A stretch of 62,939 nt of DNA, filler included, from Neolecta irregularis DAH-3 (GCA_001929475.1; 4 parts of 4 records of this genome joined end to end with filler, not necessarily neighbours in it); one strand, 5' to 3'. Positions 56-58,529 are shown, counted from the whole stretch's first letter. Program-made: numbers and translations. Notes: generated from the letters alone by a model not told the origin.

Positions 56-1568
56 ATGGCTCTCCGCTCTGCCTGCCGCTGCCTGTCACTACCCTCTGCC
101 GCCTCCTGGCCTCGGCTGCTTTCCACTCGCCTATCCCGCAGCTATGCCTCCAATTGTGCCGTTCTCGCAATGCTTCTCTGACTGCAAGCTTTCCCCAAGC
201 ACCAAATCATCAGCATGCCCGCCCTCTCTCCCACAATGACCCACGGCGGCATCGGCTCCTGGTCAAAGAAAGAAGGCGACCAGATCGCCCCAGGCGACGT
301 CCTCGTCGAGATCGAAACAGACAAGGCCCAAATGGACTTTGAGTTTCAGGACGACGGCTATATTGCAAAGATCCTGGCAGAGACAGGCACCAAGGATGTC
401 CCAATCAACCAGGTATGCGTCTTTTGTCGCAGGTTTAATTACACAGCCAATCGCTGTCCTAGTTGATTCAGAAAGCGACGTCGAAGCATTCAAGAATTTT
501 ACCGTCCAAGACGCTCAAACTGCACCCTCTCAAGAAATGGAACAACCTCGGCAGGATACAAAAGAGGAAAATCCCCTCCAACCCGAACCAGCCAAGACCG
601 AAACAGAAGAAGAGCACCCTGCATCCTCTGAACCACCCTCACATCGAATCGCTGCTTCTCCAATCGCCAGAAAACTGGCCTCTGAAAAAGGTATCCCTCT
701 AAAAGAGGTAATAGGTTCAGGTCCAAACGGCAGAATCATAAAATTCGATATCGAAAATTACAAACTAAAAGCTGAAGCACCAAGCTCAGTCCTCTCGTCA
801 TCTTCCTACACAGATATCCCCTTGTCCAACATGCGCAAAACAATTGCAAAGAGATTAACCGAGTCAAAACAGCAAAATCCCCATTACTACCTCACACTTT
901 CAGTCTCAATGGACAAAGTCCTGAAACTCCGCGAGAGCTTAAATTCCACCTCGAATGATTCATACAAACTCAGCGTCAACGATTTTCTCGTAAAAGCCGC
1001 TTCAGTGGCTTGTAAAAAAGTCCCCGCTGTGAATTCTGCTTGGCACACAGACTATATCCGACAGTACTCAAACGTGGACATCTGTGTTGCAGTAGCTACA
1101 CCCGCTGGCCTCATGACCCCCATCGTCAAAAATGTCGAGACAAAAGGCCTTGCTACAATCTCTAGCGAAATCAAGGATCTCGGGAAGCGGGCTCGTGAAT
1201 CAATGTTGAAGCCAGACGAATATCAAGGTGGAACTTTTACCATCTCAAATATGGGAATGTTTGACATCGATCAATTTACCGCGATCGTATATCACCTGTT
1301 ATTTATATTTGCTCAGCCTAGATTAATCCCCCGCAAGCTGCAATTCTTGCTGTCGGTAGTACAAAACCAAAAGTCGTGCTAGATGATTTCTCGGAAAAGG
1401 GATTCAAAGTTGAGCAAATGATGACGGTCACTCTGTCCTGTGACCATCGGTATGTTACATCATTACTTTGGTATTAACCACTTTAGGGTCGTCGATGGCG
1501 CTGTAGGTGCCGTGTGGATCAAGGCTTTCAAGGACATTCTTGAAAATCCATTACATTTATTGCTTTAG
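56..1568 (+). CDS. LAT1: Pyruvate dehydrogenase E2 (dihydrolipoamide acetyltransferase), mitochondrial; 4 introns (156-188, 413-446, 1287-1321, 1450-1486)
   Basis: Arg/Ser-rich presequence MALRSACR..., lipoyl domain MPALSPTM...EIETDKA, E3-binding ASPIARKLA, catalytic [11 protein letters not shown]...[12 protein letters not shown]...SCDHRVVDGA. Introns restore the frame. Confidence 0.95.
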
Positions 1569-1843
1569 CTTGTATGCTGGATCCTGTGGTTTTGCTTTCC
1601 ACTGAAGATAGATAGATCAGTTGTCTTTATTTCCCCAACCTTGATCTGTTGTAGTTCTCTGACAATTCTTGTATCTAGAAAGATGCAAAACCGAATTCGG
1701 TGGGAAATCTGGACAGTCTTAGAGTACAAATACCGCTAATATTTCGTAATTGGCCACTAAATAATACGTATTGGCGCCTCGACCAACCTTCAACTGGATT
1801 CCCCGAGATAACCCCTTGCATACACTTGTTCGCCGGCATAGAT

Positions 1844-4800
1844 ATGTCTGCCGAAGAGAGACAGTCTGATGAATTCGATGTATCGACCGGAGATATCGGA
1901 AGCGCATTTTCGACTCCTGTGGAGAACCCTCAAGATCTGACTACTCACGATCAACCCAATTCCAATCGACCTCAAGCCAAGAGCGAAAAACCTTCACTGC
2001 CAACGCATACTGAACGTATAGCTATTAAAAGTAGCAGCGAGACATATACCGACGATCCAAATAGTGACAAACATACATCGAAAACTACTAAACTTCATGG
2101 TCTTATTTCGACAACAGCAGGCTCACATCCCTCAACAGAGCATTTATCGGGACCTAGGAGTGATACAGACTCTGCCATTGTTGAAGATTCAGAGACGCCT
2201 GCAGAAAGTATAACTGGTTCAAACCATTCAGTGCAGATTGATGAACACGTCCACGTGGACAGCCAAGCCCCGCATATCTCCAGGTCTGCTTCACCAGTCA
2301 CTCAAGTTTCTCCAAAATCAGAAGCTTCTACCAACTCTACCACTTTGCCGAATCCTACTGAGCATCACCGTCAAGGCTCTTCGGTTTTGACAACTTTATC
2401 TACTTCCATTACACTTGACAACTCTGGTGCTTTGAGTTCTATGGTATTTGTAGTTCAAGCTCTTGAGTGTATCGAAAAGAATAAAGACACGAGAAGACGG
2501 ACACAGTTATATGATGCCGTGAGAAAGGCATTGGGTAATTATAAGTGAGAAGTTTCAATTAATAGCTCCAGGTCTGATACGAAAACAAAGCCTGCGATCT
2601 CCTTCCGCAAACACCGTTTTTGAACCTCTTCGCTTGGCTTGCGAATCTAATCAATCCTCGTTAATGAAACCCGCTCTCGACTGTATCGCAAAACTTGCAT
2701 CCTATGATTTCTTCGTGGATCCGCCTCCTCCCCCTCCTGCACCTCTGTCAAGCATTGTCCCAGTACAAAGAGCCGATACACCCACAACACCCATTTTGGA
2801 GCGCGTGGTGGATACCGTATGTGCGTGCTTTCAAGGAGAAGTTACGGATGATGCCGTTCAAGTTCAGATCATAAAGGCGCTTCTTGCTATTGTTTTGGTT
2901 GATCGCAAAGGATCTGCGTTGCATCAAGGTTCTTTACTGAGAGCCGTACGACAGACCTACAATATTTTTCTTCTAAGTCGAAATGCTACCAATCAACATA
3001 TAGCACAAGGCGCACTTACTCAGATAATCGATACGGTATTTGGACGTGTCAGGATCCAGAAGGAAAAGCACGAGGATATTTCAAACGTGGATTTGGAGAT
3101 TCCAGTATCTGGAACTGAGGAGGATATTGCAGACGCTGGTGAGGAGAAAACTGTTGGTTCTGAATTACCAGAAGGCAAAGCCACTGGATCGCGTCAAAAT
3201 AGAATGACATTGCATGCATCATCTGCCTTTATTACTGATCAGTAGGAATTCTTTTGAAGGACGGAAATCTTTTGATGGGGTGTCTACTGCAAGATCAGCT
3301 TCAAGCGACGATGAACAAGATCTCGTTGTTAAAGACGCATTTCTTGTATTTCGCTCCATGTGCAAACTTTCTCTCCACTCACTAACACCGGAAAGGTATT
3401 CAATATTTTGTCTGTCTTTGCTGACAGCGTTAGTGCTGCCGATCCAAAGTCTCATGCAATGCGTTCAAAAATATTGTCTCTCTCAACGATCCACAGTATC
3501 CTCAGTTCTCATATCTCTATTTTTACCGACCCACGCGTGCTAATTCGGTCCTCATCAAGTCAAGAGAAGACAACATTTATGCAGGCTAGTAAACAATACA
3601 TATGTCTTAGCTTGTCTCGGAATTCTGTCAGCCATGTCCAACAGGTTTTTGAAATTAGTTGCAACATTTACACAATATTCGTCACTCGACTACGGAACGT
3701 CCTCAAGGTTCTTTTTAAAATTCGTTTATTTGCTGATTCCTTTTAGAAAGAAATCGAAGTGTTTACCCGTGAGATCTTTTTGCCAATCCTGGAAATGAGA
3801 ACTTCGTCATGGCAACAAAAACAATATCTTCTGAGCGTGTTTACAGACATTTGTAGAGATCCTCGCGCGTTGGTAGAAATATATTTAAACTACGATTGCG
3901 ACCGCTCAACTTTGGACAATGTTTATGAAAGGTAGAACTGATTGATGGCTGCTTGTACTAATTGCAGAATTATGAATGTGCTGTCAAAGATCTCTGCTAC
4001 AGTAGTAAACTCCCGATCACAGCAGCAGTCACAATCCGAGCAATACAAACATGCTGGCCAATCTGATTCACTACCCTCTAGTGTCGCTTTAGATACTAGT
4101 GGAGCTGTGCTACCAGTAGAATATCATCTTAGACGCCAGGCATTGGAATGTATAGTTGCAGTCCTTCGTTCGCTTGTTGAATGGTCTGAGACAGGAATGG
4201 CAGCCGCCATAGCGATCAATCTAGATGGAAGTGAAAGATTGAGTGGCGATACCCGATCCGAAGACTTGGAAGCACGTAGGAGTTCTGGAACGCAGTTGTC
4301 TACTGGTACGAGAACACCCAGTTCAACCTCTTTTTTTGCAACAAATTCTGCCAACGAATCCAAAAATGGCGTTCTTACGCTAGTGGACGATCCTACACAA
4401 TTTGAGACTCAGAAACATTTCAAGAACGCTCTTCTCGACGGTATACGATCATTCAACTACAAACCAAAGCGTGGCATTGCTTTACTCATTAAGCAAGGCT
4501 TTGTCAAATCCGATTCACCTAATGATATTGCACATTTTCTGCTCACAACCGAGGGTCTCAGTAAAGCAGTCATTGGAAATTATCTCGGTGAACCAGATCA
4601 AGCGAATATTGCCACAATGCATGCCTTTGTTGACCTGCAAGATTTTTCAAACCTGGATTTCGTGCCTGCACTGCGGAGATTTCTGCAAGCTTTTCGTTTA
4701 CCGGGAGAAGCCCAAAAGATTGATCGATTCCTGCTCAAGTTCGCAGGCAGATATGTTGAACAGAATCCAAAGGAATTTTCCAACGCAGACGCCGCTTACG

Positions 4801-7800
4801 TTTTGGCGTATTCTGTAACAATGTTAAACACGGATGCACATAATCCCCAAGTAAAAAAGCGCATGACGAAACCCGAATTTATCAAAAATAATCGCGGTAT
4901 AAATGATGGCGGGGATTTGCCACAGGAAATGCTCAGTGCTGTATACAATGACATTCAACAGAATGAGATTGTCATGCAAGAAGAACAAACTGCAGCTATA
5001 CTTGCTGGTGCAATGAATGTCACTCGGTCAGGAATTGCCGCAGGAATTGGTAATGCACTGGCATCTGTTGGTCGAGATATGCAACGGGAAGCATATGTCC
5101 TCGCTTCGGAAGAAATGGCGAACAAGACAGAGGTATAGCCATCACAGAATTTAGTGCTAACCATCAGGCCCTGTTCAGGAATATTATTAAAACACAACGC
5201 AAGTCTGGGCTCTCTGAATCAATCTTTTATAGCGCGACCCATTTTGAACACGCAGGTCCGATGTTTGAGGCAGCGTGGATGCCATTTCTTGCAGCGTTAT
5301 CAGGCACTGTTCAAGATTCCAATGATGTTGATAATATTAGAGCATGTATGGATGGCTTTCGACTCTCCATTCGAATCAGTAGCTTATTTGGGCTTGATCT
5401 TGCTCGTCGTGCATTTGTTGGTGCTTTGGCAAAGTTCACATTCTTGTCGAATTTGAGCGAGATGAAACTGAAGAACGTAGAAGCCATCAAGACTTTGCTG
5501 AGTGTTGGATTTTCCGAGGGAAACCGGCTGCGCGACTCATGGAAAGAAATTTTGACTTGTGTCAGTCGCCTGGAAAGACTGCAGTTAATCACGTCTGGGA
5601 TTGACGAAAATGCAGTGCCGGATTCTGCCTTGAGGCCTCAGATTATGTATGTTACTCGATCTGCACTGTTGACATTGAGTCGATCCTCATCCGAAACAAC
5701 GCGGTCATTCACTTCTCTTCATCTCAAGCCCAAGACTTTCACATCAGGACAATTTGCTAGAGAAGTCGCCGATCTGACTCAGTCGCGAGAGATCTTGCAC
5801 CTGACTGATAAAATATTCACAAAGAGTGCTGAGCTTTCAGGAGAAGCAATTGTCGACTTCGTTCGAGCCCTAAGCGAAGTGTCATGGGGAGAAATTCAAT
5901 CATCAGGTCTCGGCGAGCATCCTCGCATGTACAGCCTGCAGAAGGTTGTCGAAGTATCGTACTACAACATGGATCGAATCAGAATGGAGTGGTCCAACAT
6001 CTGGGTTATACTTGGAGAGCATTTCAACCGGGCAAAGCCTCTGTAGTCGATTTTACTGACATTCAGGTTGGTACTCATCCAAACACTGCAGTAGTCTATT
6101 TCGCCATGGACTCTCTTCGGCAGCTATCCATGCGGTTCCTGGAAATAGATGAATTGCCTTTTTTCAAATTCCAAAAGGATTTTTTAAAGCCTTTCGAATA
6201 TGTTATGTCTCATAACAGCGCAGTAACTGTCAAGGATATGGTATCTCGACGAGTTTTTACAGCCCTTTAATTGATATTCTAGATCCTGCGGTGTCTACAC
6301 CAAATGATTCAGACTCGAGGTCACCGGATCAAGTCTGGCTGGAGAACCATGTTTTGCGTCTTTGCTATTGCCTCTCGAGAGATTTATGGTTTATTCTCAG
6401 CCGGAAAACGTTAATTTTTAGAATCTGTCGTAAGCTTTGCTTTCGAAAATATCAAGACAATCAACAACGACTATTTTTTACAAATTTTCGCGCATGGTAG
6501 CTACCCAGATCTTGCCGTCTGCCTTACAGAACTTGCCAAGAATCAAAGGTTTCAGAAATTCAGCCTCCAAGCCCTTGAAATTTTGAAAGGGACTATACCA
6601 AACGTGCTTGCAAGATCCGAATGTCCTCTATACGAAAATTCTTCTCTCATAAAAAGCGATTCGGCAGATGCCGACCCGACTGTTCGATTTTGGTTTCCTG
6701 TTCTATTTGGATTTCATGATATTTTGATGACCGGTGATGATCTAGAAGTTCGCTCAAAGGCATTAACTTACTTGTTTGATACGATCACCAACTATGGAGA
6801 TGGCTTTTCCAACGATTTCTGGGACCTCGCTTGCCGACAATTACTTTTTCCTATTTTTAAGGTTCTCAAGTCACGATCAGAAGTGTCTCGATTTCACAAT
6901 GATGAGGATATGACCATTTGGCTTTCGACCACGATGATCCAGGCATTGCGAAATATGATTGCCCTTTTTACTCATTACTTTGCTCGTCTTCACCAACGGC
7001 TCGATGGATTTCTTGAACTGCTAGTTTCATGTATTTGTCAGGGTTTGCCACATGGTCATAAAGTTTCCATTGATATATAGAAAATGATACCTTAGCACGA
7101 ATAGGCAGTTCGTGCCTCCAGTCATTGATTTTAGAGAACGTGCATAAGCTTCAACCAGATCACTGGACTTTAATTACGAATGCATTTGTTAATCTTTTCG
7201 AAACAACAACTCCACGTGCATTATTTACCCAACAGAATGAGGTCGTTCAAACCCACTCTTCAGAGAATTCTCTGCGAATCAACGGTGCCGGTGTTGAACG
7301 AGAAGGAAACAACAACATTGATGACTCGAGACTCACTCAGCTCCAGTCACCTGCGGATTCTGATACTGTTTTTAGTAGAGAAGAGCCACATATTTCGCCA
7401 GCAAAACGAAAAGAATTTAAACAGACCATCGTGAAATGTGTTCTACAGCTTCTTATGATAGATACGCTATCGGAGTTGTTCTCAAGCCATGATGTTTATA
7501 ATTCTATTCCTTCTGCGCATATTCTCATTTTAATGGGAGAATTGAAGAAAAGTTATGAATTTGCGAAGACCTTCAACAATGACTTGGACCTGCGTAACCA
7601 CCTATTACGCATAGGTATTACTTTGTTTTTCTGTGTTGGCTTACTTCAAGGTTTCATGAAGCAATTGCCCAATCTCCTGCGTCAAGAGTCAAATAGCGCC
7701 GCCACTTATATCAACATTCTGATTAGAATGTACAACGATCCACAGGAAGACCGAATCGCGAGCAAGACTAGCGTTGAAGAAGCATTAATCCCGTATTAGA

Positions 7801-8139
7801 GCTGATTATTCCTTAACACTGACAAAAGTCTGTCTTTCGAAATCCTTCGAAATTTTAGCAAACTTAGTGCTGAATCACAGCAGCGGAATATCGCGGCCTG
7901 GGCTCCCGTTGTTGCTGAAATTCTTCAAGGAGTGGCCGAATTCTCAGAACAAGATGTATGTGCACCTGCGAATATCAAACATTAACTAAGTATAGTTTAA
8001 CAAGAGTTGCGATACATTCTATCCTCTGAGTACAGATTTAATCTTGATGGAGTTATCTTTACAAGTCCGGAGTTCATTACATGCTGTATTCAAGCGTATG
8101 GGATCTATGAGATTCAGCAATAAAAGTGCAATCAGTTGA
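1844..8139 (+). CDS. SEC7: Sec7/BIG family Arf guanine-nucleotide exchange factor; about 14 short introns
   Basis: DCB/HUS motifs (YLNYDCD), Sec7 domain FRLPGEAQKIDR...MLNTDAHNP, HDS motifs (YYNMDRIRMEWS, FKFQKDFLKPF). Spliced frame ends at TGA 8137-8139. Confidence 0.95.
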
Positions 8140-12059: not shown

Positions 12060-14842
12060 ATGGGAGAAGAACAGAACACAAATGGAATAATTGCTAATAC
12101 AGACCAACATCAATCAATAAATGAGCATGATATATCCTCGTCCTCGTCGTCTGTCGTGTCAAATCAGCTTCAGCCTTCGCCAGAAAAGTCATCGGCCATG
12201 GAAAATGAAGCAGCCGCTATCGCCAATCTTGTGAGCGGCCAGCTAGAGAGTTCCGCGAATGACCAACAGTCCGCTGTCGAGAGAGATACAACTCCTAAGC
12301 CGCCTAATGAAGTTATGCATAAGAATCCCAGTGATTCGTCACCTTCTCAAAGAATCAAAGAGTCAAAAATCTACGCTATTCTCTCCAGCCAACTTAAACG
12401 GAAGCGTTTGCCTCACGACAAAATCGGAATTTTCGAAGATAGAATTGCAATTAATCCAATGGATACCCAAGCCTGGCTCTCCCTTATCAAAGAACATAAA
12501 GAGAAAGGCAAGGTCGATGAAGTAAGAGCGGCCTTTCAGAGATTTTTCAAAGTTTATCCTGGTGCCGTACGCATTCTTTGGTCCGCAGGGAAATCTTATC
12601 ATATAGGCTAATCAATGGATTGACTGGATAAACCTTGAACAACAGTACAACAACTTTCAAAAAGTGGAAGAAATTTTTGCCAAATGCCTTCCAACCGTCC
12701 ATTCTGTCCCCCTTTATAAAGTTTATTTGGATTATGTACGCAGAGTAAATAGTATAAGTAGCGGAGGCCAGGGAGCACGCGACATCATTACGGCTGCATT
12801 TGATTTTGTTGTGAAAAGTGTGGGTTTAGATCGGGATAGTGGGAGTATCTGGTCGGAATATCTGGATTTCGTCAAAGGATGGGATGTACGTCAGCAAATT
12901 TTTGATAAGGCTGATTTTGAACAGGCTGGTACAAAATGGCAGGAACAACAGCAGATGGATCAACTCAGAAAGATATTTCAGCGAGCTGTCTGTATTCCCT
13001 TGGACAATCTTGAATCGCTTTGGAGGCGATATGATGCCTTCGAAAATGGATTGAACAGAGCTACGGTATAATTCAGCGTTGACTATGGTTGAGTTATTCA
13101 GGCACGCAAGTTCCTTGCAGAAAAGTCGCCCGCATATATGACTGCTCGAGCATCTCTTCGCGAATTAAGTGATATTCTCTCCAAAATCAACCGCAAAGAT
13201 CTTCCTTCTTTGCCGACATGGGATTCGAGCGATGTTGGCGAGGTATTTCACTTTATGATCTATTCTTATGTTTCAGCTCCTGGCTTGGAAACGCTGGATT
13301 GAATGGGAAAAATCTGATCCTTTGGTCTTGGAAAGTCCAAAAGCTCTATCTGAGCGAGTAATATATGCATACCGCCAAGCAATCATTCGTATGCGGTTCT
13401 ATCCAGAGATTTGGTGTGATGTTATCCTGAATTGTCTAACTTTCAAAGGTCTTCTGCGGCTGAGTACTATGTATCTCGACAGATGGAGAAAGAAGCTTCA
13501 GATCTCCTCAAGCAGGGGATTTTAGCCAATCCGACTAGCTATCTACTTCATTTTCAATATGCCGAGCACGTAGAAGCGAACGGTTGCCTGACGGAGAATC
13601 AAACCATCTTTGAGAATTTAATTCAAGCGGTCACTGCGGAAATTGAAAAAGTGCAAGCAACTGCTGAGATACAGAAGTCGCAGATAATGGAAGCTGTGGA
13701 TGAGAATGACGAAATTCAAGCTACTATTGCTAGTGAGGAAGAAGATGACGCAAAGTCCACCGAAAACCAGGACAAGAAAGAATCTCAGATTAAGGCAATC
13801 AACGAGGACACTTTGAGGAGATGTGAGGCCTTTGGAGCAGACTTGTCTGTTGCCTGGGTCATGTATATGCGTGCGATGAGAAGAACCGAGGGTATTAAAT
13901 CTACGCGTTTGGTATTTGCCAAAGCTCGAAAAGCGTTGTTCGTATCGCATATCATATACTCTGCCTCGGGTATTACATCCTCTCAATCACTCTATTGATG
14001 GAATAGCTATGATGGAATATCATTGCAGTAAAGATGCCACCATTGCTCGTAAGGTCTTTGAATTTGGATTAAAGAAATACTCGCAGAATGCAGATTACGT
14101 TCTTTCTTATCTCGATTTCCTGATAAATATCAACGACGACGCCAGTAAGTAACCCACAGAGCTTTGATGGAAACTCATATGAAGATGCTCGAGCTCTATT
14201 TGAGCGAACTGTTCCAAAATTCGAAGCAGAGAGCGCACGACCACTCTATCAAAGGTTTTATCAATATGAAGCACATTTTGGTGATCTTGGTGCTGTGTTG
14301 AAACTGGATTCCCGTATGACTGATCTGTATCCAAAAGGTATCACACATTCCAGTATTTTACTAATTTTCAAGAGTCCAGCTTATCAAAGTTTCGCCTTCG
14401 AAACCGATATGGTAGATCGGATGCCATTGCAAACCACGATTTGGGAGGTTTACGGCTACCGGCTCATCCATCGGAAATAAAGAAAAGTTCTGACTCATCG
14501 TCGGATGATTCAGATTCTTCGACCGAGGACGAGAAAGTTGAAACTCCAAAAAAGCGCAAACGAAAGAATAAACGACCAATTGTCAAAGATCGAAAACCCG
14601 GAAATGCTTCTCCTGCCAGAAAGCGACTGCAGACCAAGACATTGGCTAGAGATTCACCGTCTCCTACGGGTGCTCCTGTTCTTGTCCAACTCCCAGATGC
14701 ATTAGCTACCATGGTCTCTCGGTTGCCTCCTGCGGAAATATTTGATGGGGCTACTTTCCATTGTGATAAACTGGTTGATTTAATTCTCAAAGCAGAAGTA
14801 AGGCCTGTGGTTTTGGGAGATGAGATTTGGCAAAAATCTTAA
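12060..14842 (+). CDS. RNA14: mRNA 3'-end processing factor Rna14/CstF-77 (HAT repeats); about 8 introns
   Basis: KRKRLPHDKIG, QRAVCIPLDNLESLWRRYDAFE, WIEWEKSDPL, YMRAMRRTEGIK...MEYHCSKD. Confidence 0.93.
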
Positions 14843-18853: not shown

Positions 18854-20402
18854 ATGTCTGGTACGTCTCAATTGTGCTCGCGACACTATGTTCTAACGGA
18901 CATTTAGACGTCGATGAGCAAAGTATTGCCTCCGAGGCTCGTAGCAATCCGGATTTCGAGACTGAAACAGGCGACACGCAATCTTCTCCTGATCTCAAAG
19001 TATGCGAGTTATTGTAGATTTGGCTAATGCAAAGACTCCTGTGAACGAACTGCAGGACCTGTATCCATCCAAAGTTTCGAATATAGTCCGAAGGAAGCTT
19101 ACTGGATTCGTGGGCTTTGCCAATTTGCCTAATCAATGCCACCGAAGAAGTGTTCGCAAGGGGTTTAATTTTACGATGATGGTTGTTGGTAACGAGATTT
19201 GATCGAGGGTGGTGCTAATAAATAGGGGAATCCGGACTGGGCAAGACGACTTTGGTGAATACGTTGTTTAATTCTTCGTTGTATCCGCCGAAGCCGGTAG
19301 CCGGGCCGAGTTTGGAAGTGCCCAAGACTGTTGCGATTCAGAGCATATCTGCTGGTAGTGTTTTGCGCGAGTTTGCTGACGGACTAGATATTGAAGAGAA
19401 TGGGGTTCGATTGAGGTTGAATGTTGTAGACACCCCAGGGTTTGGGGACTTTATCGACAACGATGAGAGTTGGAAGCCCATCTTGGAGAATATTGAGGGG
19501 CGCTTTGACAGCTATTTGGAGGCGGAGAACCGAGTCAACCGGGCCAACATTATTGACAATCGGGTGCATGCATGTGTTTACTGTATCCAGCCTACTGGGC
19601 ATTCGCTCAAGGAGCTTGATATTGAGTTTATGAAGAGACTGCATACAAAAGTGAATCTTATTCCGGTCGTGGCCAAGGCGGATATGCTTACGGAGGAGGA
19701 GGTTGAGGCATTTAAGCGGCGGGCAAGGGGGCTTGTGGAGCGTGCTGACTGTAGATTCTTGCCGACATTGAGTATCACCAGATCAAGATCTTTGAGGCGC
19801 CGCGATACGAGCTGGACGACGAGGAGACGATCTGCGAGAACCGGGAGATTATGGCGAAGATTCCGTTTGCGGTGGTTGGCAGCACGAACGAGGTGATGAC
19901 GTCGAGCGGCAAGCTTGGGCGGGGGCGCAAGTATCCGTGGGGGGTTGTTGAGACGGACAACGAGGACCACTGCGACTTTGTGAAGCTGCGGCAGATGCTT
20001 ATCCGCACGCACATGGAGGAGCTCAAGGAGAACACGAACGACGTGTTGTACGAGAACTACCGCAGCGAGAAGCTGACTGCGATGGGAGTTGCGCAGGACC
20101 AGACGGTGTTCAAGGAGGTGAATCCTGCGGCGAAGCAGGAGGAGGAGCGGCAGCTGCACGAGGCGAAGCTGGCGAAGATGGAGGCGGAGATGAAGATGGT
20201 GTTTCAGCAAAAGGTGACGGAGAAGGAGTCGAAGCTGCAGCAGTCGCAGAAGGAGCTGTATCTGCGGCACACGGAGATGAAGGAGAATCTGGAGAAGCAG
20301 AAGGCGGAGCTGACGGACAAGCTGATGCGGATCCAGCAGCAGGGCAAGAATCTGGAGGAGAAGGGCAAGCGAAAGGGGTTTAGTCTGCGGGGGGCGAGTT
20401 AG
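18854..20402 (+). CDS. CDC3: Septin, Cdc3/AspB group; 5 introns including a 32-nt GC-AG intron (19723-19754)
   Basis: [12 protein letters not shown]-loop [28 protein letters not shown]-terminal coiled coil ending [10 protein letters not shown]. Confidence 0.9.
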
Positions 20403-20547: not shown

Positions 20548-20559
20548 ATCTAACCAACG

Positions 20560-40443: not shown

Positions 40444-43139
40444 TCAATATGGAGAATCCACCACACTATTTCGAAGATTACTTCGCAACGGGCGTAAGGG
40501 TGTGGCGAGTGACTGCCTTGTAGGTCGAACAAATGATTTCTTGTCGACTATCGAGACTGAGAGACGGGAGGTCAACTCTAATTCATAGGAAATGCATACC
40601 ATCATTTGACAAAGTAACAATTACATTGTTGTCCGATCCAAATTTGAAGTTCTCCGCTTTGACCTTCAAAGTTAATTTCACATTTAGAGTTTATGTTTGT
40701 ACCTCTTCGCCATAGCTTTTGATGTGATACTTGTTAGTAATACCCTGTTTGACTTGCTCAAAATTCCAGGAGATAACGTACGGTCCGGAGCTCGTTACAA
40801 TGGTCGTTTCCTTGACATCTGGTCCCGTGTTGAACTTGGCAGTCGTGAAGCTGAGGGCAGATGTTTGCTGCATCATCGCAACATGTTGGGGCTTGAGCTG
40901 TAAACGCCTTGGACGAGGCTTACTATCCTTTGCAAAGCTTCGCTCAAAACCTAACTTCCCTTCGTATCTGCCTTCTTTAATCGTAGCGTCAATAATGAGA
41001 AGATAGGTTTTACAAGTTGCAAGAACCCAGCCACCGTTTGCAGTGACATCAATTCCAATAATAGGTTCTCCAAGAGGCATCAATAAACTCTTCGCATTAA
41101 TACCGAGCCGATCAAAAAGTCGGATATCCCCTTTATTGGAGGCTACAGCGATATATCCTTGTTCTGTAGTAGCAGTGGTTGAGAAATCATTCTTAGAAAC
41201 GTAGCTTTTGTGTTCAGAGTTAACGAGCTTGTTCCCAGACAAGCGCGGATCGATTCTAAACAAGCCGTTTTGCGAAATCCCAATCACTGTGTGCTCTGAT
41301 GTCATCTGTGCAAACTTGTTGTCTGGAGTGAAATCTTTAACGGTAATGTCTTCATCTACTTTCCATTCATCAACAACTTTCCCTGTTTCGAGATCCATCT
41401 TGTAAAGGCTCTGAGGGTTATCAGGATTCTGAAGAATCATGGCAGAATCTTCTTGATGGAGCAGAACCTAAAGGTCAACAAAGATGACGAAAGAACATGT
41501 ACTTTAGCAGGATTGAAGTCTTTGCCATTCATATCCGCAACTTTGTTGATGGTGGTTGCGAATTTGAGTCGATTATCGTTGGTGTGTTTGAATACACCGA
41601 TTTTATTCCCACGCACGACAAATGAACGATTGTGTTTGTATCCAACGGCCAACTGACTGTTTTCACCTTCCCCACCCACTCCTTCAGTTTCGGAATCGGA
41701 CACTTCGCTTTGAAGAGCTGCAATATAAGCCAAGCTAAGGATGCTATTGTACCGTCCTCAAATTCATCGGTCTCTGACTGAGCAGAAGTCTCTTCTTCGT
41801 CAGGCTGGTCAATGTCCATTGCATCGTCATCTCTGAAGGCATCCATGACGTAATCCCGCTCTTCGCCTTTGTTCTTGGACCATTTAGTTTCATTCAGCAT
41901 TTCCCATAATGCACGCATTAGACCTTCCTGGAAGATCTCTTCGGTCTCTATATCTGGGAATCGCAGAAGCCAAGAATAGGCTTTGTTATTCTCGTCATAA
42001 TAGTTCCATATAAAACACAATTGTTCCTATCGTTAGTATAACTTTTTAGAAATCGACAAACGTAGTTGAAGACAGGCGACATTTCGGGAAGGATTTCCAT
42101 TTCAAGCCAAGGTCGCCCTTGACTTTGAATTGAAAGCCAGTCTGGGATGTAAGTAAGGCTTGTGAAGTAGGCGCGTGCATTTCCACTCTCCGATTTCAGA
42201 CACTGTTGCAATGACGCGCTTTTCCTGCAGAACAAACAGGCCTTCGGTCGGATCAAATAGGTGAAGTTCTGCTCCAACCTGAGCGAGAGTCTCGCCCTGT
42301 TCAGGTGCATCAAGGACTATAGGTGCAATAAATGTTTTCTCCCTACGTCGTACCGCTTTGGTGGGAAATCTTTTCTCTGGATTGGGAGAATATCTTGGTG
42401 CTGGAGCACTGAAATCTTCCGGCGTCGAGGGCCTCTCCGGGGAATCACTGGCCTCTTAGATATCTGTAAACATAGGTGAAATACGCGTAACTGAATTGCC
42501 GTAAATCTACCTCTGTAGCAAAGGTATGGGATTGGCGATATTTCCTTTCATACATACACTGGTAGGCAACCATTTCAAAAGCATAGCAGGTCTCAGGGGG
42601 AGTAGATCCATCGCATAAAAATTCATAACGATCGCCGTAATCCTGACTTCAGTTGAAGAACAATACAAGAAAAAGGTACTCCGGATAGGTCTTTCCAGCT
42701 GAAAGTGGTTCCTTCCTCATTGACGACTACTCTTAAATCAAGCGACTGATCTATAAGAAAAACTTTCTCTGCGGAATCTGATCGGTAAGCTTCGATCTGA
42801 TTACAAATTTTACCCTCAGAGCTGACGTCATCTTCACTTATCTCTTCTTCGCCTTCTTCATATGCCCGCTGAATCACCAGATGATAATGATAATGAGTAG
42901 ACGTCCGTCGAACAGAGGCAACAGCGTCTTTGAAACTGCAGCATCAATATCTTTCGGTTTCATTTTCCGAATACTTACATACATTCGCTGGAACCCTTAG
43001 GAGAACTAGGCCGTACAAGAAACAGTTGGCCCGCAGGTATTTGCACAACTTCGGTTTTATTTGGATCACCTAAAGCAGTAAATACAATGACAAAAGATAA
43101 AGTATAACCCCAGATGTATTTTCCAAGTTTCTTGAGCAT
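40444..43139 (-). CDS. VID27: Vacuolar import and degradation protein Vid27; many introns
   Basis: MLKKLGKYIWG, GQLFLVRP.SPKG..ECIF, NSQLAVGYKHNRSFVVRG, LYKMDLE.GKVVDEW, AVASNKGDIRLFDRLGINAK. Confidence 0.92.
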
Positions 43140-43395
43140 TTCCATGATTGGCAAATCTTGGAGGTGAGCCGATAACCTTCAAGTATAAAAAAGCGCGCGG
43201 GAACTTCAAAATTTTCGAGAACATCAAATGTATGCATTAATCTATTACGTGCAAGTTCTCTTGTCAGGATCAACATGCTCTTGCTCTATGTACAATTTTG
43301 CGCCATCAAATCCAGCCTTATAAATTATTCGCTTATATAAAGGAAGCGCGAATGCTAATGTCACAAGTATAAATCACATGAACTGCACAATAGTG

Positions 43396-45017: not shown

Positions 45018-46477
45018 TCAATGACGAGGCGGACCGCGACCGTGATTCGGGGTCCATGCACCCAGCGACTCATTCGCGTAAAAGTCCATAGGATAGGTCT
45101 GCTGCCATTCTACTTGTCCAAGTGCAACAGAGAACTCATAAGGCGAAAGTAGCGGCTTTGTAAAGGCATACCCCCAGTCAATAGACAACCGAGGGCATGC
45201 AATCTGAACCCATGCATCAACATCTTCGAACTGATCTAGCTTCGAGGGAAAAATCTCGGAGAGTAGGACGATAATATGCACCATTCCAGCACGACGAATT
45301 TGTGTTTCCAAATTCTTAGGTCAGTTAGAGACAAGAGATCAGTTCTCTACCTCAAGTACTCTAAGGCTTCCTTGCCTTCCAAGAGTACCGAGAATCAATC
45401 CAATTTTTTTCGAATGACGTGTTTTGGCTATAGCGTCTTGTCTAAGTTCATACATTTCATCATGTCCGTATTTTTCGTGTGTGAAAGATCGAGCATAGGG
45501 GTCATAGCAATAGGCAGTAACAGTTGGGTTTGCGATCATAATTGACTCAAGATGGAACCTTCCATCTCCAACATAAACAATTAGGTCGATGTCTTTGCCA
45601 AGTTTAGGAGCTGTACAGCCTAAAATTTCTCCCGGTGAAAGTGGCTTGGCTTGTGGTATAGTAATGCGAAATCCAGAATGTGATTCAGTCCGTGTTTCGA
45701 GGTCATCACGTACTGAGTGTAGAGTTGCAACAAACTGTATCGTGCCAACTAATGCAATACTCGTTTCTGCAGGTATATTATGACGCAAAGTCGATACTAG
45801 GTGGTTTGTATCAAAGGCAATATCCACGAATATGTAGAGAGTTTTGATTGGCGTTACATCTACTGGAACCAAACAAGAATGGCCATAGTGGACAAGGAAG
45901 TCGCACCCCAAGGCTCGTGCGGTGAAATCGTCGATACAACAAGCTCCATAAGTCACGTCCCCCATAACGAGGCTTTCAGCATCACAGAACCTTGTTATCA
46001 ACTAAGCTACAGGATATGATACCGTTCAAGGATGTCGGCGATTGTACACGCGAACATCAAAAGTCCTTCAGGCATTTGTAGCGCTACTGAAAATGTTAGG
46101 CATAACATTGTTCAAATCCGAACCCCTCTTTGCATTCACGCGTCGAATATGCCATACCGTTTTATGAATCTCGAGGTTATAGTTGGTAGGTAGCTGAAAA
46201 ACAATTAGTTCATGCACGGCTTTGTAACAAACAAGATCTATGGCCTTATTCAGTTCTGGGTCTTCCAGAATTTCTTTTGGAATCTGGTTAACAGCTCTTG
46301 CACATCTCTCCGACTTTTCTAAACAATCAGCCGCCAAGAAAACGACAATGTACTGGATATAACAACTGCGCCATTTCCAATGCTCTCGTCGCCATTAAAG
46401 GCCTTTAAGCGGACAGCAGCAGCATGTTTCCTTCCTATAAAACGTTTTCTCGCTGGAGGTGTACTTTCATTAGTCAT
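45018..46477 (-). CDS. DPH1: Diphthamide biosynthesis protein Dph1
   Basis: [73 protein letters not shown]. Confidence 0.95.
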
Positions 46478-46587: not shown

Positions 46588-47680
46588 ATGCCTCCGATAA
46601 AATATCCCAGACCGACAGGCCACAACCTACTGCCGCCCCAGGTTTTAAGGCCAAAATCCCACGAGTATGTTCGTATTGTAGATGTGAGTGTGAGAGACGG
46701 CCTTCAGAATGAACGCGGATTTGTACCTACAGAAATTAAGTGTGAATTGCTTGATCGTCTGACCCGGACGGGATTGGAAGCTATCGAGGCTACAAGCTTT
46801 GTATCTCCGAAGTGGGTCCCCCAGGTATTCAACTGTGGAGACTTCATGTGCTCACTGTTCAGCTTGCTGATGCTCGAAAAGTCATGGGGCATATTAAACG
46901 AGCCCATTCCGCTTCGAAAATCCGATTTCCTGTCCTTGTCCCTAATAAAGGAGGGTTGGAATCTGCCCGTGCTGCTGGGGCCACGGAGATTGCAGTATTT
47001 GCTTCCGCAAGCGAAGGGTTTAGTCGAAAAAACATCAATTGTTCGATCGAAGAAAGTTTGAGAAGATATAAAGAAGTGTGTCTGTTGGCGTTACAATATG
47101 GAATGAAAGTGAGAGGTACTACTGGATGCTGTTCAAGGTAATTTATCAGGGTACGTAAGCTGCGTTATTGCTTGCCCGTACGATGGTCATACACCTCCGG
47201 AAAACGTACTACGAGTATCACAATCCCTTCTAGACATGGGCTGCTTCGAAATATCTTTAGGAGACACAATTGGTGTCGGAACACCAGGTATCTGGCTTAT
47301 CTCTATTGGCTTAACGATAAGCAACGATTGGAATTCTGTTGAATTATCTCCTCAAAACAATTCCGTCACATAGCCTAGCAGGCCATTTTCATGATACATA
47401 TGGGCAGGGTGTTGCTAATGTCGTCAAAGCTCTTGAAATGGGAATTCGAACGTTTGATGCAAGTGTGGGTGGGCTAGGTGGGTGCCCCTTCGCAAAAGGG
47501 GCAACGGGCAACGTTGCTATGGAAGATGTTCTCTATTGTTTGCATAGTATGGGCTTTAAAACCGGTGTGAATTTGGAAATGGTTGCGGATATTGGAGACT
47601 GGATTTCGAAAACCTTGGCCAGGAACAATTCCTCGAGGTGTGGGACTGCTTTGGTAAACAGGCGGAGGGCGAAATTATAA
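46588..47680 (+). CDS. Hydroxymethylglutaryl-CoA lyase
   Basis: [61 protein letters not shown]. Confidence 0.93.
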
Positions 47681-47764: not shown

Positions 47765-49228
47765 CTACATGACTGAGAATGCCTCTTCTATAATATCTAG
47801 CCCATTCCGCAAAGGTTCTGGTTCAATATTCAGGGGAGGAATGATCCGTAGTGTATTGTTGCCGGCAGATATGATCAAAAGACCGCGTTCCCGACACAGG
47901 TCAATGAAATGCGTTGGGTCAACAGATAACTGCACGCCAAGCAAAAGACCTCTTCCCCGAATCTCGGTTATCAGCGAGGGAAATCGATATTGTAGACGTC
48001 GTAATCGAGAAGTAATAACATCACTTGATTGTTGAACTGACTGTAAGAGTTCGGTTGAAGATAGACGCGAGAATGTATGATGAGCAACTCGACAGGCGAG
48101 TGGGTTCCCTCCAAACGTGGTGCCTTGACGTCAATGGATATGTTTCAGTCATTGTCACCATGATCTCCAATCTTGATAGCCTCTGCTACATCTTCACCTA
48201 CGAGAATAGCGCCGATTGGGAATCCATTTGCAAGTGATTTGGCCATCGTTAAAACATCTGGCTGGATATATTTCGGTAAGTATTGGTGAGCCCATAACTT
48301 TCCTGTTCGCCCGAGACCACACTGAAGAATCAGTGGTGAATTATCAGGCCTTACCTGAATCTCATCAAAAACAAGTACTGCGCTCACCTGAGTACATCTT
48401 TCCCGCAAGGCCCCCAAAAACTCAGCCGATCCTTGATATACTCCACCTTCGCCCTGAATAGGTTCAACTATGACACCACATGTTTCTTCCGTGACAAGCT
48501 CAGCAATGCCTTCAGCTTTATTATATTCTCCGACCACGAAACCAGGAACCATTGGAGCAAAAGGTGCTTGATATTTTGGATTTGGGGTTGCACTTAGGGA
48601 ACCCATCGTTCTACCATGAAATGAATTCGTGAAGGATACGATCTTATGTTTTTTCACATCGCCGATTAATTTTCCCACTTTCCTACAAAATTTGATTGCC
48701 CCTTCGTTTGCCTCTGTTCCGCTGTTGGCGAAGAAGACTTTGGAAGCCTTCTGCATTCCACCTGATAGTCTGGTTGTCTCAACAATAAGCCTTGCAAGCT
48801 CTCCAGCCTGGGACGCATGATATAAATTGCTGACGTGAATTAACTTGAGAGCTTGATCGTGAATGATGGCGGCGATCGTTGGATCAGCATGTCCAAGAGC
48901 ATTTACAGCAATTCCGGCAGTGAAGTCAATATAGCGCCTTTGGTTCTAATTAGCTCGTGCGGCCAAGAGATGGAAGATTCCTGTTTTCCAAGTCCCATAA
49001 ATATGCACCTTTACCCCGCGTGAATACAACATTTGGACGAGTATATGTGGTCAACACGAATTCAGAATTATCCTTGATCAATTTTGCAGATGGCGAATTA
49101 TCAGACGGATCTGGATGCGAGACTTTTCTAATCAACTACGAACAATGAGAAAACAGCCTTCTTCATGAGAACCAAACTATCGACCTTTGAAGTATTTTGG
49201 CTAGATGAGTAAAGTGCTGATTGAGCAT
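47765..49228 (-). CDS. ARG8: Acetylornithine aminotransferase, mitochondrial
   Basis: YIDFTAGIAVNALGH, NSGTEANE, SFHGRTMG, VEPIQGEGG, DEIQCGLGRTG, MAKSLANGFPIG, HGTTFGGNP. Confidence 0.93.
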
Positions 49229-55250: not shown

Positions 55251-56417
55251 TTAAGTGTCTTGGTCTCTCATTGTAGCTAGATACGCAATTACACTTGCAG
55301 AACTGCCGTCTGGATTATCGACTGGCGCATTTGGTAATTTTTGCTCAAGAGGCGAAGGCTGTCCGGTGTCTTTAGGTAGTAATGCACTTGACATAGTTTC
55401 GTATTCATTCATGCTGCACGACGGTGCAGACTGATGTTGGTTGTAACTCTGTATGGCAGCAGTTTGTTTCCTTGCATTACGAATGACAAACGGCGCTTCG
55501 ATGGTTTGCGTGAACCGATCAACCTTACGCTTTAGAAGAAGTTATCAGAATAAATTGACCTTCTGTTGACCCCATCCACCAATCATCAGAATCTCCTCGG
55601 GAATCGCGTTCATAGCGTTCCGTAAACTTCCAAAGTTGCTAATGAGAGATAAGGCATCCGCTTTGTTGACACTTCGTACTGACGTTAAAGTATCGATGAT
55701 TCTTGAAGCATAATCTGGTGCTTGCTTTTCCATGATCAAAGTCGGCTGAGCCATTTCGTAAGATTTAAATGTCTCTAGATATCTCCCTGCTTCTGCATCT
55801 CTTTCTCTGTTAGAAAATGAAGGTGGTCTCTACTTACGTCCATGCAAGTATGATGGTGAGGTTATTTATAATACTAGTCTTCGTAAGATCGCGAATCGAA
55901 TCCGTGTGATTATCCTGAACGTCAAAAGTTGTTTGTGCAAACGCAATACGATGTCAACGCGCACCAAGAGGATTCGTAAATTGTAAAGCTTTCCCAAGGC
56001 TTGGATTCGGTTGTAGACATACTCAGGATGAAGGCGATGATATTTCAAGCTTTCATTCAGCAAATGGCCATATCCGAAACCATGATATACCTCAGAAATA
56101 ATGCGCAAGTGGTTGTTCCTACAACAAAATCAGACTGAAGTTCACTATCGTATTCCCATGGAACATTTCTGATATGATCCAGTATTCGATTTCCTTTCTC
56201 TCCAGTGAGCGTCTTTATCAAAAGGGTTTACTCGTACTTGTCTTGGATTGACTAAGATGTTATTAGATCCGCCAGGATTATTTAGTCTTCGTGGGGTGGG
56301 CTGTTGAAAGCCGCTATCGGGATTTGCAGGGCTTGCAAAGGACTTTTGGACAGAACTTACAGCCTGTTCCAATTGTGCCAAAGCCTCTTGATCCAAGTCG
56401 AAATCAAAGTCATTCAT
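55251..56417 (-). CDS. RAD10: Excision repair protein ERCC1/Rad10/Swi10
   Basis: [71 protein letters not shown]. Confidence 0.92.
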
Positions 56418-56645
56418 TATGATCTCACTTGTTTACTGAGGCTTCCAAGGACAAGAAGATCACATGACTTTACGAAATCAACCCATATTGCTGACCAACG
56501 AACAAGGATTCAAAGCTAGTTCCTTGTCTACGGGGAGCGTCCCAGCATATTACATTGTATATCCAACGTCTTCTGTCCCAAACGGTAATATGGTAATATT
56601 TGACAGAAGCTACCAATGCTTATACCTGTAAATATACTCGACGTG

Positions 56646-58529
56646 TCAAAAACCGCTGGCATGAATCTTTTGTTGACCTTTGACTTTTCCTTGTCCAACT
56701 TCCATCTTCGCAGCCTTAGATCCAAATTGCACAGCCCTGAATTCTAAGGCTAAATTTGAACTTGTATGTATACCTTTTCTTCTCTCTAGCCGTCTTGACA
56801 ATCCCAAGCCTAGCAGCAAGTCTTCTTAATAGTAACTTATCCCCTCCGACATGAGAAAAATCCACCTTTTGGTCTATTTGAAGACTGCACAAGTACAATA
56901 CAACATTTTCGTCAAGAAAGGGGTATCGAACTTCTCGTCCATGATGAGAAATTATGCGATCATCACGTCCTAGATTTCGAGTTGGAAGGCGGTCAATGTC
57001 AACTTGTAACTGTATATTAGCAAGTTATAGTAATGGCATTTATACTTCTTGTATCAATTTTTCCCATCCCCCGGCTTTGAATGTCTTTAGATGCCGTGAA
57101 TAACCACTTCCCAAGATCAGTCAATGCTTCGAATATTGGCATACCCCAGTTGTTCATCTGCCCCCATACCAGAAAACAAAACCTTGGCAGTAGAAGAGTA
57201 TTCTAATTTGTTTCCGTCTTGTGATCTCATAATTCCCCGTGCCCGGGCAGAGAAATAGAACGCCATGGAGATGTCGAGGTCCATAACCGAATCATTCGGA
57301 TGCGCCAACTGAAATATTTCTTTTTTAGATTGCATTGCCTCAGCAAAAGGAACATCAATCTATTGCCTATTAGGACTAGAATACAACATCATTATGCCTC
57401 GATGAATCTCCAAGCTCTATTATGAGTATTTTCTATAAGCTCTTTCCACCCTTGGAGGCCCGTCATACGATCCGGGCATAACTGATAACCTTCTTCGACA
57501 GTGAGGTTGTGAGTGGAAAGAAACCGTGGATTCTCGAAAGCGACATTGAGAAGGTCGATTGGCTCATCGACTGGAAGGACGTCGTGAAGTAATCTTGCTA
57601 TCACTCCACAATCAAGACCACCAGAATATAGCACCGCTACACGAGGCTTGTGCATATGCGAGTTCGGTATGGTTACAGCCCGTATCCGTATTGCTTCAAG
57701 AAGAATATAATGAAAATTAGTCAATGGATCCCACGAGCCAGATTCGGAAGGAATAGAGGTATTCAAAGAGAAATATGGCCTCTTCTTTGTGAGTAGTCTT
57801 CAGGTGAGAGTCTTCCTACCAAATTATACAAAGGCGGTCCTCGATTTCTTTTGTTGAAGAAGGATGTATATGTAATTGCCCACTAGATATGGGTCGTAAG
57901 CTAGGTATTGGGTGGATTAGGCAAAGACAAACACTTTCAGTTGAGGAACTCAGATCCAGGCAATAAATGCCATTTGCTAGTACATCATCCCATTCATCAC
58001 TACTTTCTCCAACGCTGGATAGAATGAATATATCGTATGTTTTTCGCAAAAGAGATCTGCGACCAAGGCGGTCTCTCCCAAACCATACTTTTCCTTTATC
58101 TTTCTATCATTCATGTCAGCGAAACAGATTACTTAAAGGTACCTGAAAGTAAACAAAGGCATAGGGTCCTTGGAGATCCTCCATTACGGCAGAGACGTTG
58201 TGGTTTCCCGATAATTGATCCAGTAGTCTTGATCCGTCATTACCATAGTAGGGCATCCACTCGGCAATACTGCACCACACCTCACCATTCCAGCAAAGAA
58301 TATTTCCCTCTTGAGATACCAGCGGCTGGGTGGTAATATCGTTGCCTCGGAGATGGAGGACAGATGATGAACACGTGAGTTCAAATGTGGTTAAAGCGTC
58401 GAGGTGGATAGCTTGGATGCAGGTAGAATACGAGTCCGGACCTCTGGCTTTGATATACGGCTCTAGAGTACCAATAGAGGCATCAAATATGTCTGTGGAA
58501 CGTCGTATAGAAAAGAAGATGCCGCACAT
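56646..58529 (-). CDS. Asparagine synthetase domain-containing protein (ASNSD1/YML096W-like)
   Basis: Ntn start MCGIF, WNGEV, GRDRLGRRSL, LYSGGLDC, DLLNVAFENPR, GMGADEQLGGY.RH, RNLGRDDR, KKRAVQFG. Confidence 0.92.

Follow-up and report, generated by a model that had tools for sequence, protein, structure and literature searches.

We analyzed the introns in a 62,939-nucleotide (nt) stretch of nuclear DNA from the ascomycete Neolecta irregularis (hereafter, the window), and found that they are extremely short and nearly constant in size. All 51 introns that we could validate, in 13 conserved genes of this one window, are 32-43 nt long, and they combine a minimal donor site with a branch site placed close to the 3' end. 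These are probably ordinary major-spliceosome (U2-type) introns in an extreme state, which would be recognized by intron definition with a fixed spacing. The window has a GC content of about 44% and carries about 29 genes on both strands, which were mapped with Pfam on 150 open-reading-frame (ORF) pieces. They include genes for PDH E2, a Sec7-family exchange factor (GEF), RNA14/Suf, a septin, an aldehyde dehydrogenase, cytochrome c1, VID27, Sof1 and Rad10, together with a diphthamide-synthesis gene. The exons are 99-100% identical to annotated proteins of Neolecta irregularis DAH-3, and the next-closest relatives (Saitoella, Pneumocystis and Schizosaccharomyces) show 64-67% identity.

The introns were validated by two independent routes. 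In the first, single in-frame exons were compared with Pfam, with ORF-level matches as a control, and the profile coordinates had to continue across the junction. In the second, homologous proteins (40 for VID27, 14 for the Sec7 gene, 21 for the asparagine-synthase-domain gene and 32 for the SPX-RING gene) were aligned to the genomic DNA with a purpose-written protein-to-DNA spliced aligner, which allowed GT or GC donors and any length of at least 20 nt and contained no branch or length model. An intron was accepted when the profile junction was off by no more than one position, or when most homologues clearly agreed on identical boundaries. Two probable introns were kept outside the set, and two stretches were left out because the homologues disagreed (57780-57934 in the asparagine-synthase-domain gene and 33001-33398 in the SPX gene). 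Removal of the intron restored a continuous conserved protein in all 51 cases, by Pfam continuity or by spliced alignment. In no case among the 51 could the boundaries be shifted to another, equivalent GT/GC..AG pair, and a search within 12 nt revealed no GTRNGT donor in phase. Therefore, an error in boundary placement can be excluded. In the genes with an annotated Neolecta protein to compare, 30 of 34 validated introns are also implied by that protein, and the four discordant ones comprise three GC-AG introns and one alternative donor. Judged by homology and reading frame, the 51 introns are real, beyond chance or annotation error. According to the available text of PMC5309816, RNA sequencing supports 99.4% of N. 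irregularis genes.

The lengths of the validated introns have a median of 37 nt, a mean of 36.9 nt and a standard deviation of 2.5 nt. The distribution is single-peaked and narrow, with a standard deviation of no more than about 3 nt, as is characteristic of Paramecium-type minimal introns (n = 51). An original prediction, made by a model from the sequence of this DNA, had described ultra-short introns of 32-48 nt, and the validated set bears this out. One of its examples, 6389-6421, was recovered with all 14 homologues; another, 19723-19754, proved to be a true intron (Septin profile 165/166), but its donor is GC and not GT. The other two examples, 156-188 and 25269-25300, are candidates listed outside the validated set in Table 1. 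Gene prediction gave a similar picture. With a nearly flat length prior (20-130 nt allowed), a gene finder placed 25 of 38 introns at 31-43 nt, and with a flat prior up to 300 nt it made 60-63 predictions at 32-48 nt, 0-3 at 49-70 nt and 34-49 above 70 nt, the last being mostly gene-merging artefacts. Four annotated N. irregularis proteins imply 52 introns, 48 of which measure 32-48 nt; for the other four (52, 52, 62 and 90 nt), the homologues favour 43, 34, 35 and 38 nt. A trained gene finder called 97 introns in 22 of the 29 gene regions, the other seven yielding no model, and 96 of the 97 were 31-47 nt long. At least five ab initio introns were false by Pfam continuity, four among the 97 and one in an earlier model (41068-41103, 48322-48354, 19927-19964, 35094-35135 and 35155-35195), so that this census is only rough because the finder calls false introns, in frame or in the wrong frame, within real exons. 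The total of about 130 introns originally suggested for the window is plausible, given that fully resolved genes contain at least seven introns each. The resolved genes have about 3-5 introns per kb of coding sequence.

The donor consensus is G/GTAT and nothing beyond (n = 51). Position -1 is G in 32 of the 51 introns (0.44 bit), +1 is G in all 51 (1.96 bit), and +2 is T in 47 and C in 4 (1.56 bit). Position +3 is A in 41, T in 6 and G in 4 (1.05 bit), and +4 is T in 30, C in 10, A in 9 and G in 2 (0.42 bit). Almost no information is left at +5 (A 15, C 6, G 17, T 13; 0.04 bit) and +6 (A 14, C 11, G 8, T 18; 0.02 bit). Summed over +3 to +6, the donor information amounts to 1.54 bits (bootstrap 1.22-2.27 for the first 46 introns), and over -3 to +6 to 5.74 bits. 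The canonical ascomycete donor GTRNGT was matched by only 4 of the 51 introns, in agreement with the predicted departure from this motif. The prediction had also stated that positions +3 to +6 vary widely, which holds at +5 and +6, fails at +3 and is half correct at +4. Position +4 shows a strong preference for U relative to A (27 vs 9 in the first 46 introns, log2 = -1.58; 30 vs 9 in all 51). The GT donors match CAG/GTAAGT better than exonic GTs do (5.07 vs 3.62 of 9 positions, P = 1.7e-12), and U5 and U6 interaction potentials showed no anti-correlation (rho -0.11, P = 0.49). Every intron has GT..AG or GC..AG ends, with 47 GT and 4 GC donors and AG at all 51 acceptors. U12-type (minor) introns have a rigid /GTATCC or /ATATCC donor and a TCCTTAAC-like branch site. 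This class was considered and rejected, as none of the 51 donors reads GTATCC or ATATCC and the branch motif is YTRAY.

The GC-AG introns number four among the 51, and a fifth is probable (Table 1). For each, the homologue alignments were unanimous, the Pfam coordinates continued exactly across the junction, or both. GT-AG introns make up 98.7% in fungi in the available text of PMC7072748, and four of 51 is significantly more than the remaining 1.3% (P = 0.0044; for 4 of 46, the 95% interval spans 2.4-20.8%). The annotated proteins bypass three of the four, as well as the probable fifth, through GT-AG pairs that are given in Table 1 for comparison, and alignment scores were much higher for the GC-AG introns than for these annotated alternatives.

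At the 3' end, 38 of the 51 introns contain a YTRAY motif whose A precedes the junction by 4-20 nt, and in 33 of these 38 the distance is 6-10 nt. An expectation-maximization motif search from 30 random seeds converged on YTRAY, which occurred in the 3' zone of 33 of the first 46 introns, whereas 500 shuffles gave 9.9 on average and never more than 19. The median distance of the branch A is 28 nt from the 5' end, with 34 of 38 falling at 26-31 nt and none below 17 nt, and 8 nt from the 3' junction. The acceptor position -3 is C in 20, T in 18, A in 12 and G in 1. The stretch between the branch A and the AG, about 5-8 nt long, contains no polypyrimidine tract, being 63% pyrimidine against 57% upstream; there is no room for such a tract, because the branch A mostly lies 6-10 nt before the 3' junction. 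The CTRAY-like branch site near the AG and the lack of a clear polypyrimidine tract had both been predicted, and both were confirmed. A negative correlation between the lengths of the 5' and 3' segments of the introns was discarded as evidence, since it is forced by the near-constant total length.

We also calculated how much of the information for recognition is carried by each feature. Models of donor, acceptor, branch point and length were trained on the introns of other genes (leave-one-gene-out) and used to score all GT/GC..AG pairs spanning 20-300 nt within the pre-mRNAs of Sec7 (10,608 candidates, 12 true) and VID27 (4,712 candidates, 10 true), that is, to 15,320 candidates containing 22 true introns; performance was measured as how many true introns reached the top k, where k is 12 for Sec7 and 10 for VID27. 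The donor alone placed 0 of 12 and 0 of 10 true introns in the top ranks for Sec7 and VID27, respectively. Donor and acceptor together placed 1 of 12 and 0 of 10, the addition of the branch point raised this to 2 of 12 and 2 of 10, and the addition of length instead raised it to 7 of 12 and 5 of 10. With all features, 10 of 12 and 7 of 10 were recovered. In other words, the motifs alone recover 4 of the 22 true introns, and 17 are recovered with the length term, which was the most informative single term and was needed in this statistical model to separate true introns from decoys. Without it, the median ranks of the true introns were 40th and 49th among thousands of candidates. The original idea that introns are defined by length and branch point therefore stands as an information argument: in the model, these two features carry most of the discrimination, with spacing doing most of the work. 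The result describes the information present in the sequence and not a measurement of length by the spliceosome. Separately, intron-like GT..AG segments of 33-40 nt that score like true introns were observed in exons shown to be continuous by Pfam or homology (41068-41103, 42317-42353, 4897-4936 and 48322-48354); aberrant or regulated splicing might occur there.

If retained, 37 of the 38 introns of unambiguous phase would shift the frame or introduce a stop. Paramecium introns carry a signature of depletion in lengths that are multiples of three (3n). In the Neolecta set, 11 of 38 introns are 3n, and 10 of these 11 contain an in-frame stop, compared with about 55% expected from composition, although the number of introns is small and homology validates stop-free 3n introns least easily. 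Only one validated 3n intron, 7615..7650 in the Sec7 gene, has no in-frame stop. With the same caveat about stop-free 3n introns, the 37 disruptive cases fit a decay backstop.

Based on these results, we propose the following mechanism. The introns would have been compressed to 37 +/- 2.5 nt, with a minimal donor G/GUAU that has no preference at +5 and +6 and tolerates C at +2, and with a YURAY branch site whose A is separated from the 5' end by about 28 nt and from the 3' AG by about 8 nt, with no polypyrimidine tract. The 5' splice site and the branch site would be paired across the whole intron (intron definition), and the fixed spacing would supply the specificity that is missing from the weak motifs. 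The 3' AG would then be chosen a few nucleotides beyond the branch point, and unspliced transcripts would be caught by nonsense-mediated decay. We infer that the spliceosome uses the spacing, that the small nuclear RNAs (snRNAs) are of the standard type and that decay has this role. Several points weigh against the proposal. The sample comprises 51 introns from 13 conserved genes of one window, and the method is blind to poorly conserved genes, to introns in untranslated regions and to long introns. All 51 junctions are placed by homology and reading frame. The decoy test shows what is sufficient for a model whose training data were of the same kind, and not what the cell uses, and 5 of the 22 true introns rank below decoys, with intron-like decoys lying within real exons (e.g., 41068-41103 and 42317-42353). 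In addition, standard snRNAs are assumed, and the narrow length distribution could simply be a floor reached by deletion bias.

This last point leads to an alternative that has some force but that we consider clearly less probable, in which there is no ruler. Deletion bias would have driven the introns to the minimum tolerated size, the weak donors would reflect relaxed selection with nonsense-mediated decay as a backstop, and recognition would depend on the same cues as in other short-intron fungi. The rule relating intron number to weak 5' splice sites, as given in the available text of PMC2483917, is in favour of this explanation. The branch A distances, with their lower limit of 17 nt and their concentration at 26-31 nt from the 5' end, are as a steric floor predicts, and 37 of 38 introns would be decay targets if retained. 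The related Pneumocystis also has dense introns of about 50 bp, with retention in 42-49% of introns (PMC6747714, PMC4764891). However, the median ranks of 40th and 49th that true introns reached by motifs with no length term mean that recognition requires a further cue, for which spacing is the obvious candidate. In addition, lengths are bounded from above, since none of the 51 introns exceeds 43 nt, and a floor alone is insufficient for this.

It is unlikely that changed recognition machinery explains the degenerate donors and the missing polypyrimidine tract, a molecular ruler having replaced base-pairing at the donor. The candidates for such a change are the U1 5' end, the U6 ACAGA box, U2AF, U1C, Luc7, and the loss of METTL16 (the writer of N6-methyladenosine, m6A, in U6) or of SNRNP27K. 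In its favour, +5 and +6 carry no information, GC donors account for 4-5 of 51-53 introns, no other single term is as informative as length, and the strong preference for U over A at +4 is off-trend for an intron-rich species. In Saccharomycotina, a preference for +4 U is tied to the loss of METTL16 or SNRNP27K, mostly in intron-poor species, according to the available text of PMC10581693; therefore, an intron-rich species with +4 U is off-trend, and the preference is unexpected in Neolecta. On the other hand, nothing within the window bears on snRNAs or splicing factors, and Rfam gave no match at all in it, to snRNA genes or otherwise. Intron-rich species whose snRNAs are standard cover a range that includes 1.54 bits, and in the 240 yeast genomes covered by PMC10581693, as far as its available text goes, 5' splice-site preferences shift with U1 ACUUACC and U6 ACAGA invariant. 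Furthermore, A at +3 (41 of 51) and G at -1 (32 of 51) are what standard U1, U6 and U5 contacts favour, and the GT donors resemble CAG/GTAAGT more closely than exonic GTs do. The altered U1/U6/U2AF recognition put forward in the original prediction is thus not required, because the donor information lies within the 1-4 bit range and U1 and U6 stay invariant despite shifts in preference.

A more specific possibility, which we regard as similarly doubtful, is a relaxed reading of the 5' splice site. Pairing at +5 and +6 would be dispensable, C would be tolerated at +2, +4 U would be preferred through lost or changed U6 m6A (METTL16) or SNRNP27K, and a fixed distance of about 28 nt between the 5' splice site and the branch point, within an intron of 32-43 nt, would be the main determinant of specificity. 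If this is true, then Neolecta would have a fungal counterpart of the ciliate 'ruler' introns that retains the branch site, and it would be an intron-rich exception to the rule connecting +4 U with intron poverty. Finally, although our own gene finder did place false introns in continuous exons, it is hardly conceivable that misreading or faulty gene prediction produced the short introns, with exons that are really continuous or boundaries that are misplaced, given 51 junctions fixed by profile or homologue continuity, no slide ambiguity or nearby canonical donor, 30 of 34 in agreement with the independent public annotation, and a broken frame or added stop on retention in 37 of 38.

The intron richness of Neolecta has already been published: the available text of PMC7940399 gives 4202 introns in 1211 orthologues of N. 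irregularis, compared with 862 in Schizosaccharomyces pombe. Its short introns are already public as well, through the annotation. The main text of the genome paper (PMC5309816) has no occurrence of 'intron', 'splic' or 'exon', and its supplements may hold intron statistics. Among the matches listed in our search, as far as their text was available, there was no published description of Neolecta intron length or splice sites. As far as we searched, the new features are the length window of 32-43 nt in a fungus, the lack of a +5/+6 preference together with +4 U, and the raised share of GC-AG introns, which are handled wrongly in the public annotation.

The system is most fittingly classed as an extreme form of the short-intron, weak-donor state already known from intron-rich eukaryotes. 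Such eukaryotes have 1-4 bits at +3 to +6 in the available text of PMC2483917, so that the 1.54 bits of Neolecta fall inside the range of the weak-5'-site class of Irimia and Roy, at its low end; the branch consensus is degenerate, as in the other intron-rich fungi of that source. According to its Table 2, the median intron is 56 nt in S. pombe, 55 nt in Cryptococcus neoformans and 63 nt in Aspergillus nidulans, compared with 37 nt in Neolecta. Length distributions as narrow as that of Neolecta (standard deviation 2.5) are found in the available part of this table only in Paramecium (25 +/- 3.06), a dicyemid (Dicyema, 25 +/- 2.5) and nucleomorphs (Guillardia, 46 +/- 2.7). These lineages have CTRAY in only 1-12% of introns in the same table, whereas Neolecta keeps YTRAY in 38 of 51.

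Among closer relatives, Pneumocystis belongs to the same subphylum (Taphrinomycotina) and is intron-rich, with about 5 introns per gene (PMC4764891), and its introns are also short, on average about 50 bp, with discussion of retention and a decay backstop (PMC6747714). Neolecta differs in that its introns are shorter and tightly bounded (n = 51), and in that its DNA, at 44% GC, is not AT-rich and about 8% of its introns are GC-AG. The Pneumocystis donor consensus is reportedly also degenerate, with no fixed G at +5, in work attributed to Thomas et al. in 1999. S. pombe and other short-intron fungi resemble Neolecta in having short introns, CTRAY near the 3' AG, and a polypyrimidine tract that is weak or missing. 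In such introns the splice sites are said to pair across the intron, a view credited to Romfo et al. in 2000 and to Lim and Burge in 2001. S. pombe prefers +4 A, with m6A-modified U6, in the available text of PMC10581693, and this differs from the +4 U and missing +5 G of Neolecta. Saccharomyces-type yeasts share GUAU at +1 to +4, but they are intron-poor with a rigid GUAUGU, whereas Neolecta is intron-rich and unconstrained at +5 and +6.

Table 1. Introns of the window, with the homologue alignments (x/y) or Pfam profile positions that support them; validated unless the class column states otherwise.
Gene	Coordinates	Strand	Length (nt)	Donor or class	Support
PDH E2	156..188	+	33	GTGCCG; putative first intron, outside validated set	frame logic only
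PDH E2	413..446	+	34	GTATGC	Biotin_lipoyl match of ORF 182-463 stops exactly at 412; frame resumes at 447
PDH E2	1287..1321	+	35		2-oxoacid_dh 166/167 across junction
PDH E2	1450..1486	+	37		2-oxoacid_dh 205, split codon, 207
Sec7-family GEF	2535..2571	+	37		11/14
Sec7	3212..3245	+	34	GC-AG; probable, outside core set	11/14; summed local score 2176 vs 1926 for annotated 3242-3293
Sec7	3396..3433	+	38		13/14
Sec7	3708..3746	+	39	GTTCTT	14/14; HUS 103/104
Sec7	3932..3967	+	36		14/14
Sec7	5133..5167	+	35		14/14
Sec7	5647-5679			candidate, ambiguous	7/14; scores 6781 vs 6715
Sec7	6032..6066	+	35	GC-AG; GCAAAG	14/14; score 4056 vs 3584 (annotated 6005-6066) and 3256 (5989-6017); outscores alternatives in 9/9 homologues
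Sec7	6241..6282	+	42		14/14; HDS 36/37
Sec7	6389..6421	+	33		14/14
Sec7	7043..7080	+	38	GTTTGC	14/14
Sec7	7615..7650	+	36		13/14; BIG2_C continues 55 to 58
Sec7	7793..7828	+	36		14/14; BIG2_C continues 101 to 104
Sec7	7956..7995	+	40		14/14
RNA14/Suf	12567..12606	+	40		Suf 50/51
RNA14	13066..13101	+	36		Suf 190/191
RNA14	13243..13276	+	34		Suf ~236/238, within 1 position
RNA14	13414..13448	+	35		Suf 282, split codon, 284
RNA14	13970..14006	+	37		Suf 409, split codon, 411
RNA14	14145..14184	+	40	GTAAGT	Suf 455, split codon, 457
Septin	19723..19754	+	32	GC-AG; GCAAGG	Septin 164(+1)/166; ORF 19755-20399 begins at profile 166
R3H/G-patch gene	25269..25300	+	32	GTCTTT; candidate, outside validated set	sequence GT..CTGAC..AG
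Aldehyde dehydrogenase	30934..30971	-	38		Aldedh 134, split codon, 136
Aldehyde dehydrogenase	30421..30454	-	34		Aldedh 294/295
Aldehyde dehydrogenase	30180..30212	-	33		Aldedh 362, split codon, 364
SPX-RING	32852..32891	+	40		26/32
SPX-RING	33730..33767	+	38		28/32
SPX-RING	33920..33957	+	38	GAG acceptor	29/32
SPX-RING	34119..34155	+	37		26/32
SPX-RING	34270..34306	+	37		22/32
F-box/transglutaminase-like/YccV gene	38756..38790	+	35		YccV-like 29, split codon, 31
VID27	43070..43108	-	39		31/40
VID27	42936..42978	-	43	GTAAGT	39/40; VID27_N 42, split codon, 44
VID27	42778..42813	-	36	probable, in-frame, outside core set	9/40; spliced 1601 vs retained 1467, higher in 8/8 homologues
VID27	42643..42679	-	37		40/40; VID27_N 122/123
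VID27	42448..42484	-	37		26/40, alternatives in other 14
VID27	42142..42178	-	37	GC-AG; GCACGC	40/40; VID27_PH 38, split codon, 40; score 1592 vs 640 (annotated 42242-42278)
VID27	42027..42061	-	35		40/40; VID27_PH 66/67
VID27	41718..41752	-	35		26/40
VID27	41468..41502	-	35		40/40; VID27 profile 55/56
VID27	40664..40702	-	39		40/40; VID27 profile 312/313
VID27	40557..40599	-	43		40/40
Diphthamide synthesis gene	45315..45350	-	36		Diphthamide_syn 227/228
HMGL-like gene	47288..47321	+	34		HMGL-like 170, split codon, 172
Class-III aminotransferase	48124..48158	-	35		Aminotran_3 285, split codon, 287
Rad10/ERCC1	56050..56090	-	41		Rad10 43, split codon, 45
Rad10/ERCC1	55915..55949	-	35		Rad10 77/78
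Asparagine-synthase-domain gene	58104..58142	-	39		13/21; 58094-58132 preferred in 7/21
Asparagine-synthase-domain gene	57360..57397	-	38	GC-AG; GCATAA	21/21; open frame, good scores; annotated 57360-57449 gave no open frame in our test
Asparagine-synthase-domain gene	57107..57144	-	38		21/21
Asparagine-synthase-domain gene	57010..57045	-	36		21/21
Asparagine-synthase-domain gene	56737..56773	-	37		21/21

The first intron proposed for PDH E2 is plausible from the reading frame. An exon beginning at the ATG at 56 is needed, because the lipoyl match begins at about 209, before the ATG at 215, in an ORF that opens at 182. In the BIR gene, exons start at 28024 and 28388 on the plus strand, each at profile position 23 of 70 of a BIR domain, which suggests that the intron position was duplicated together with the domain.

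The window contains spacers of the form N44-TTAATTAATTAA-N44 at 24560-24659, 54777-54876 and 61080-61179, and extra runs of 10 N at 8434, 8606, 34486, 39952 and 54592. These artificial spacers mean that the window consists of several contigs joined end to end, which has no effect on the intron question. The final 66 nt of the first contig (24494-24559) are identical to its initial 66 nt (1-66), which points to an overlap in the assembly or to a circular path in its graph, and not to biology. The region 20001-25000 has 56% GC, compared with about 44% elsewhere, with many frames open and a large GYF-domain gene on the minus strand. A short tandem repeat of GGATAGAGGGA-like units lies at the start of the second contig (24660-24700).

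Two public proteins were found to join neighbouring genes. P0001 (1134 amino acids; 39094-43145, minus strand) is VID27 read through into the next gene downstream, the homologues ending at 40447. P0241 (886 amino acids; Pfam Asn_synthase and Rad10; 55254-58529, minus strand) is the asparagine-synthase-domain gene fused to Rad10/ERCC1, the homologues ending at about 56650. Standard gene finders mishandle the Neolecta genome, fusing neighbouring genes and swapping GC-AG introns for wrong GT-AG ones. Such errors will distort studies of orthology, intron evolution and gene content that use Neolecta as a key early-diverging multicellular ascomycete.

Neolecta is not a laboratory organism, and this limits the impact of these findings. 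It would have the shortest and most tightly sized introns among the intron-rich fungi compared here (37 nt, compared with 55-63 nt and about 50 bp), and the G at +5, nearly universal elsewhere, has been lost from its donor. It illustrates to what extent splice-site information can be eroded while thousands of introns are still removed, and we suggest that Neolecta is a natural test case for spacing-based intron definition.

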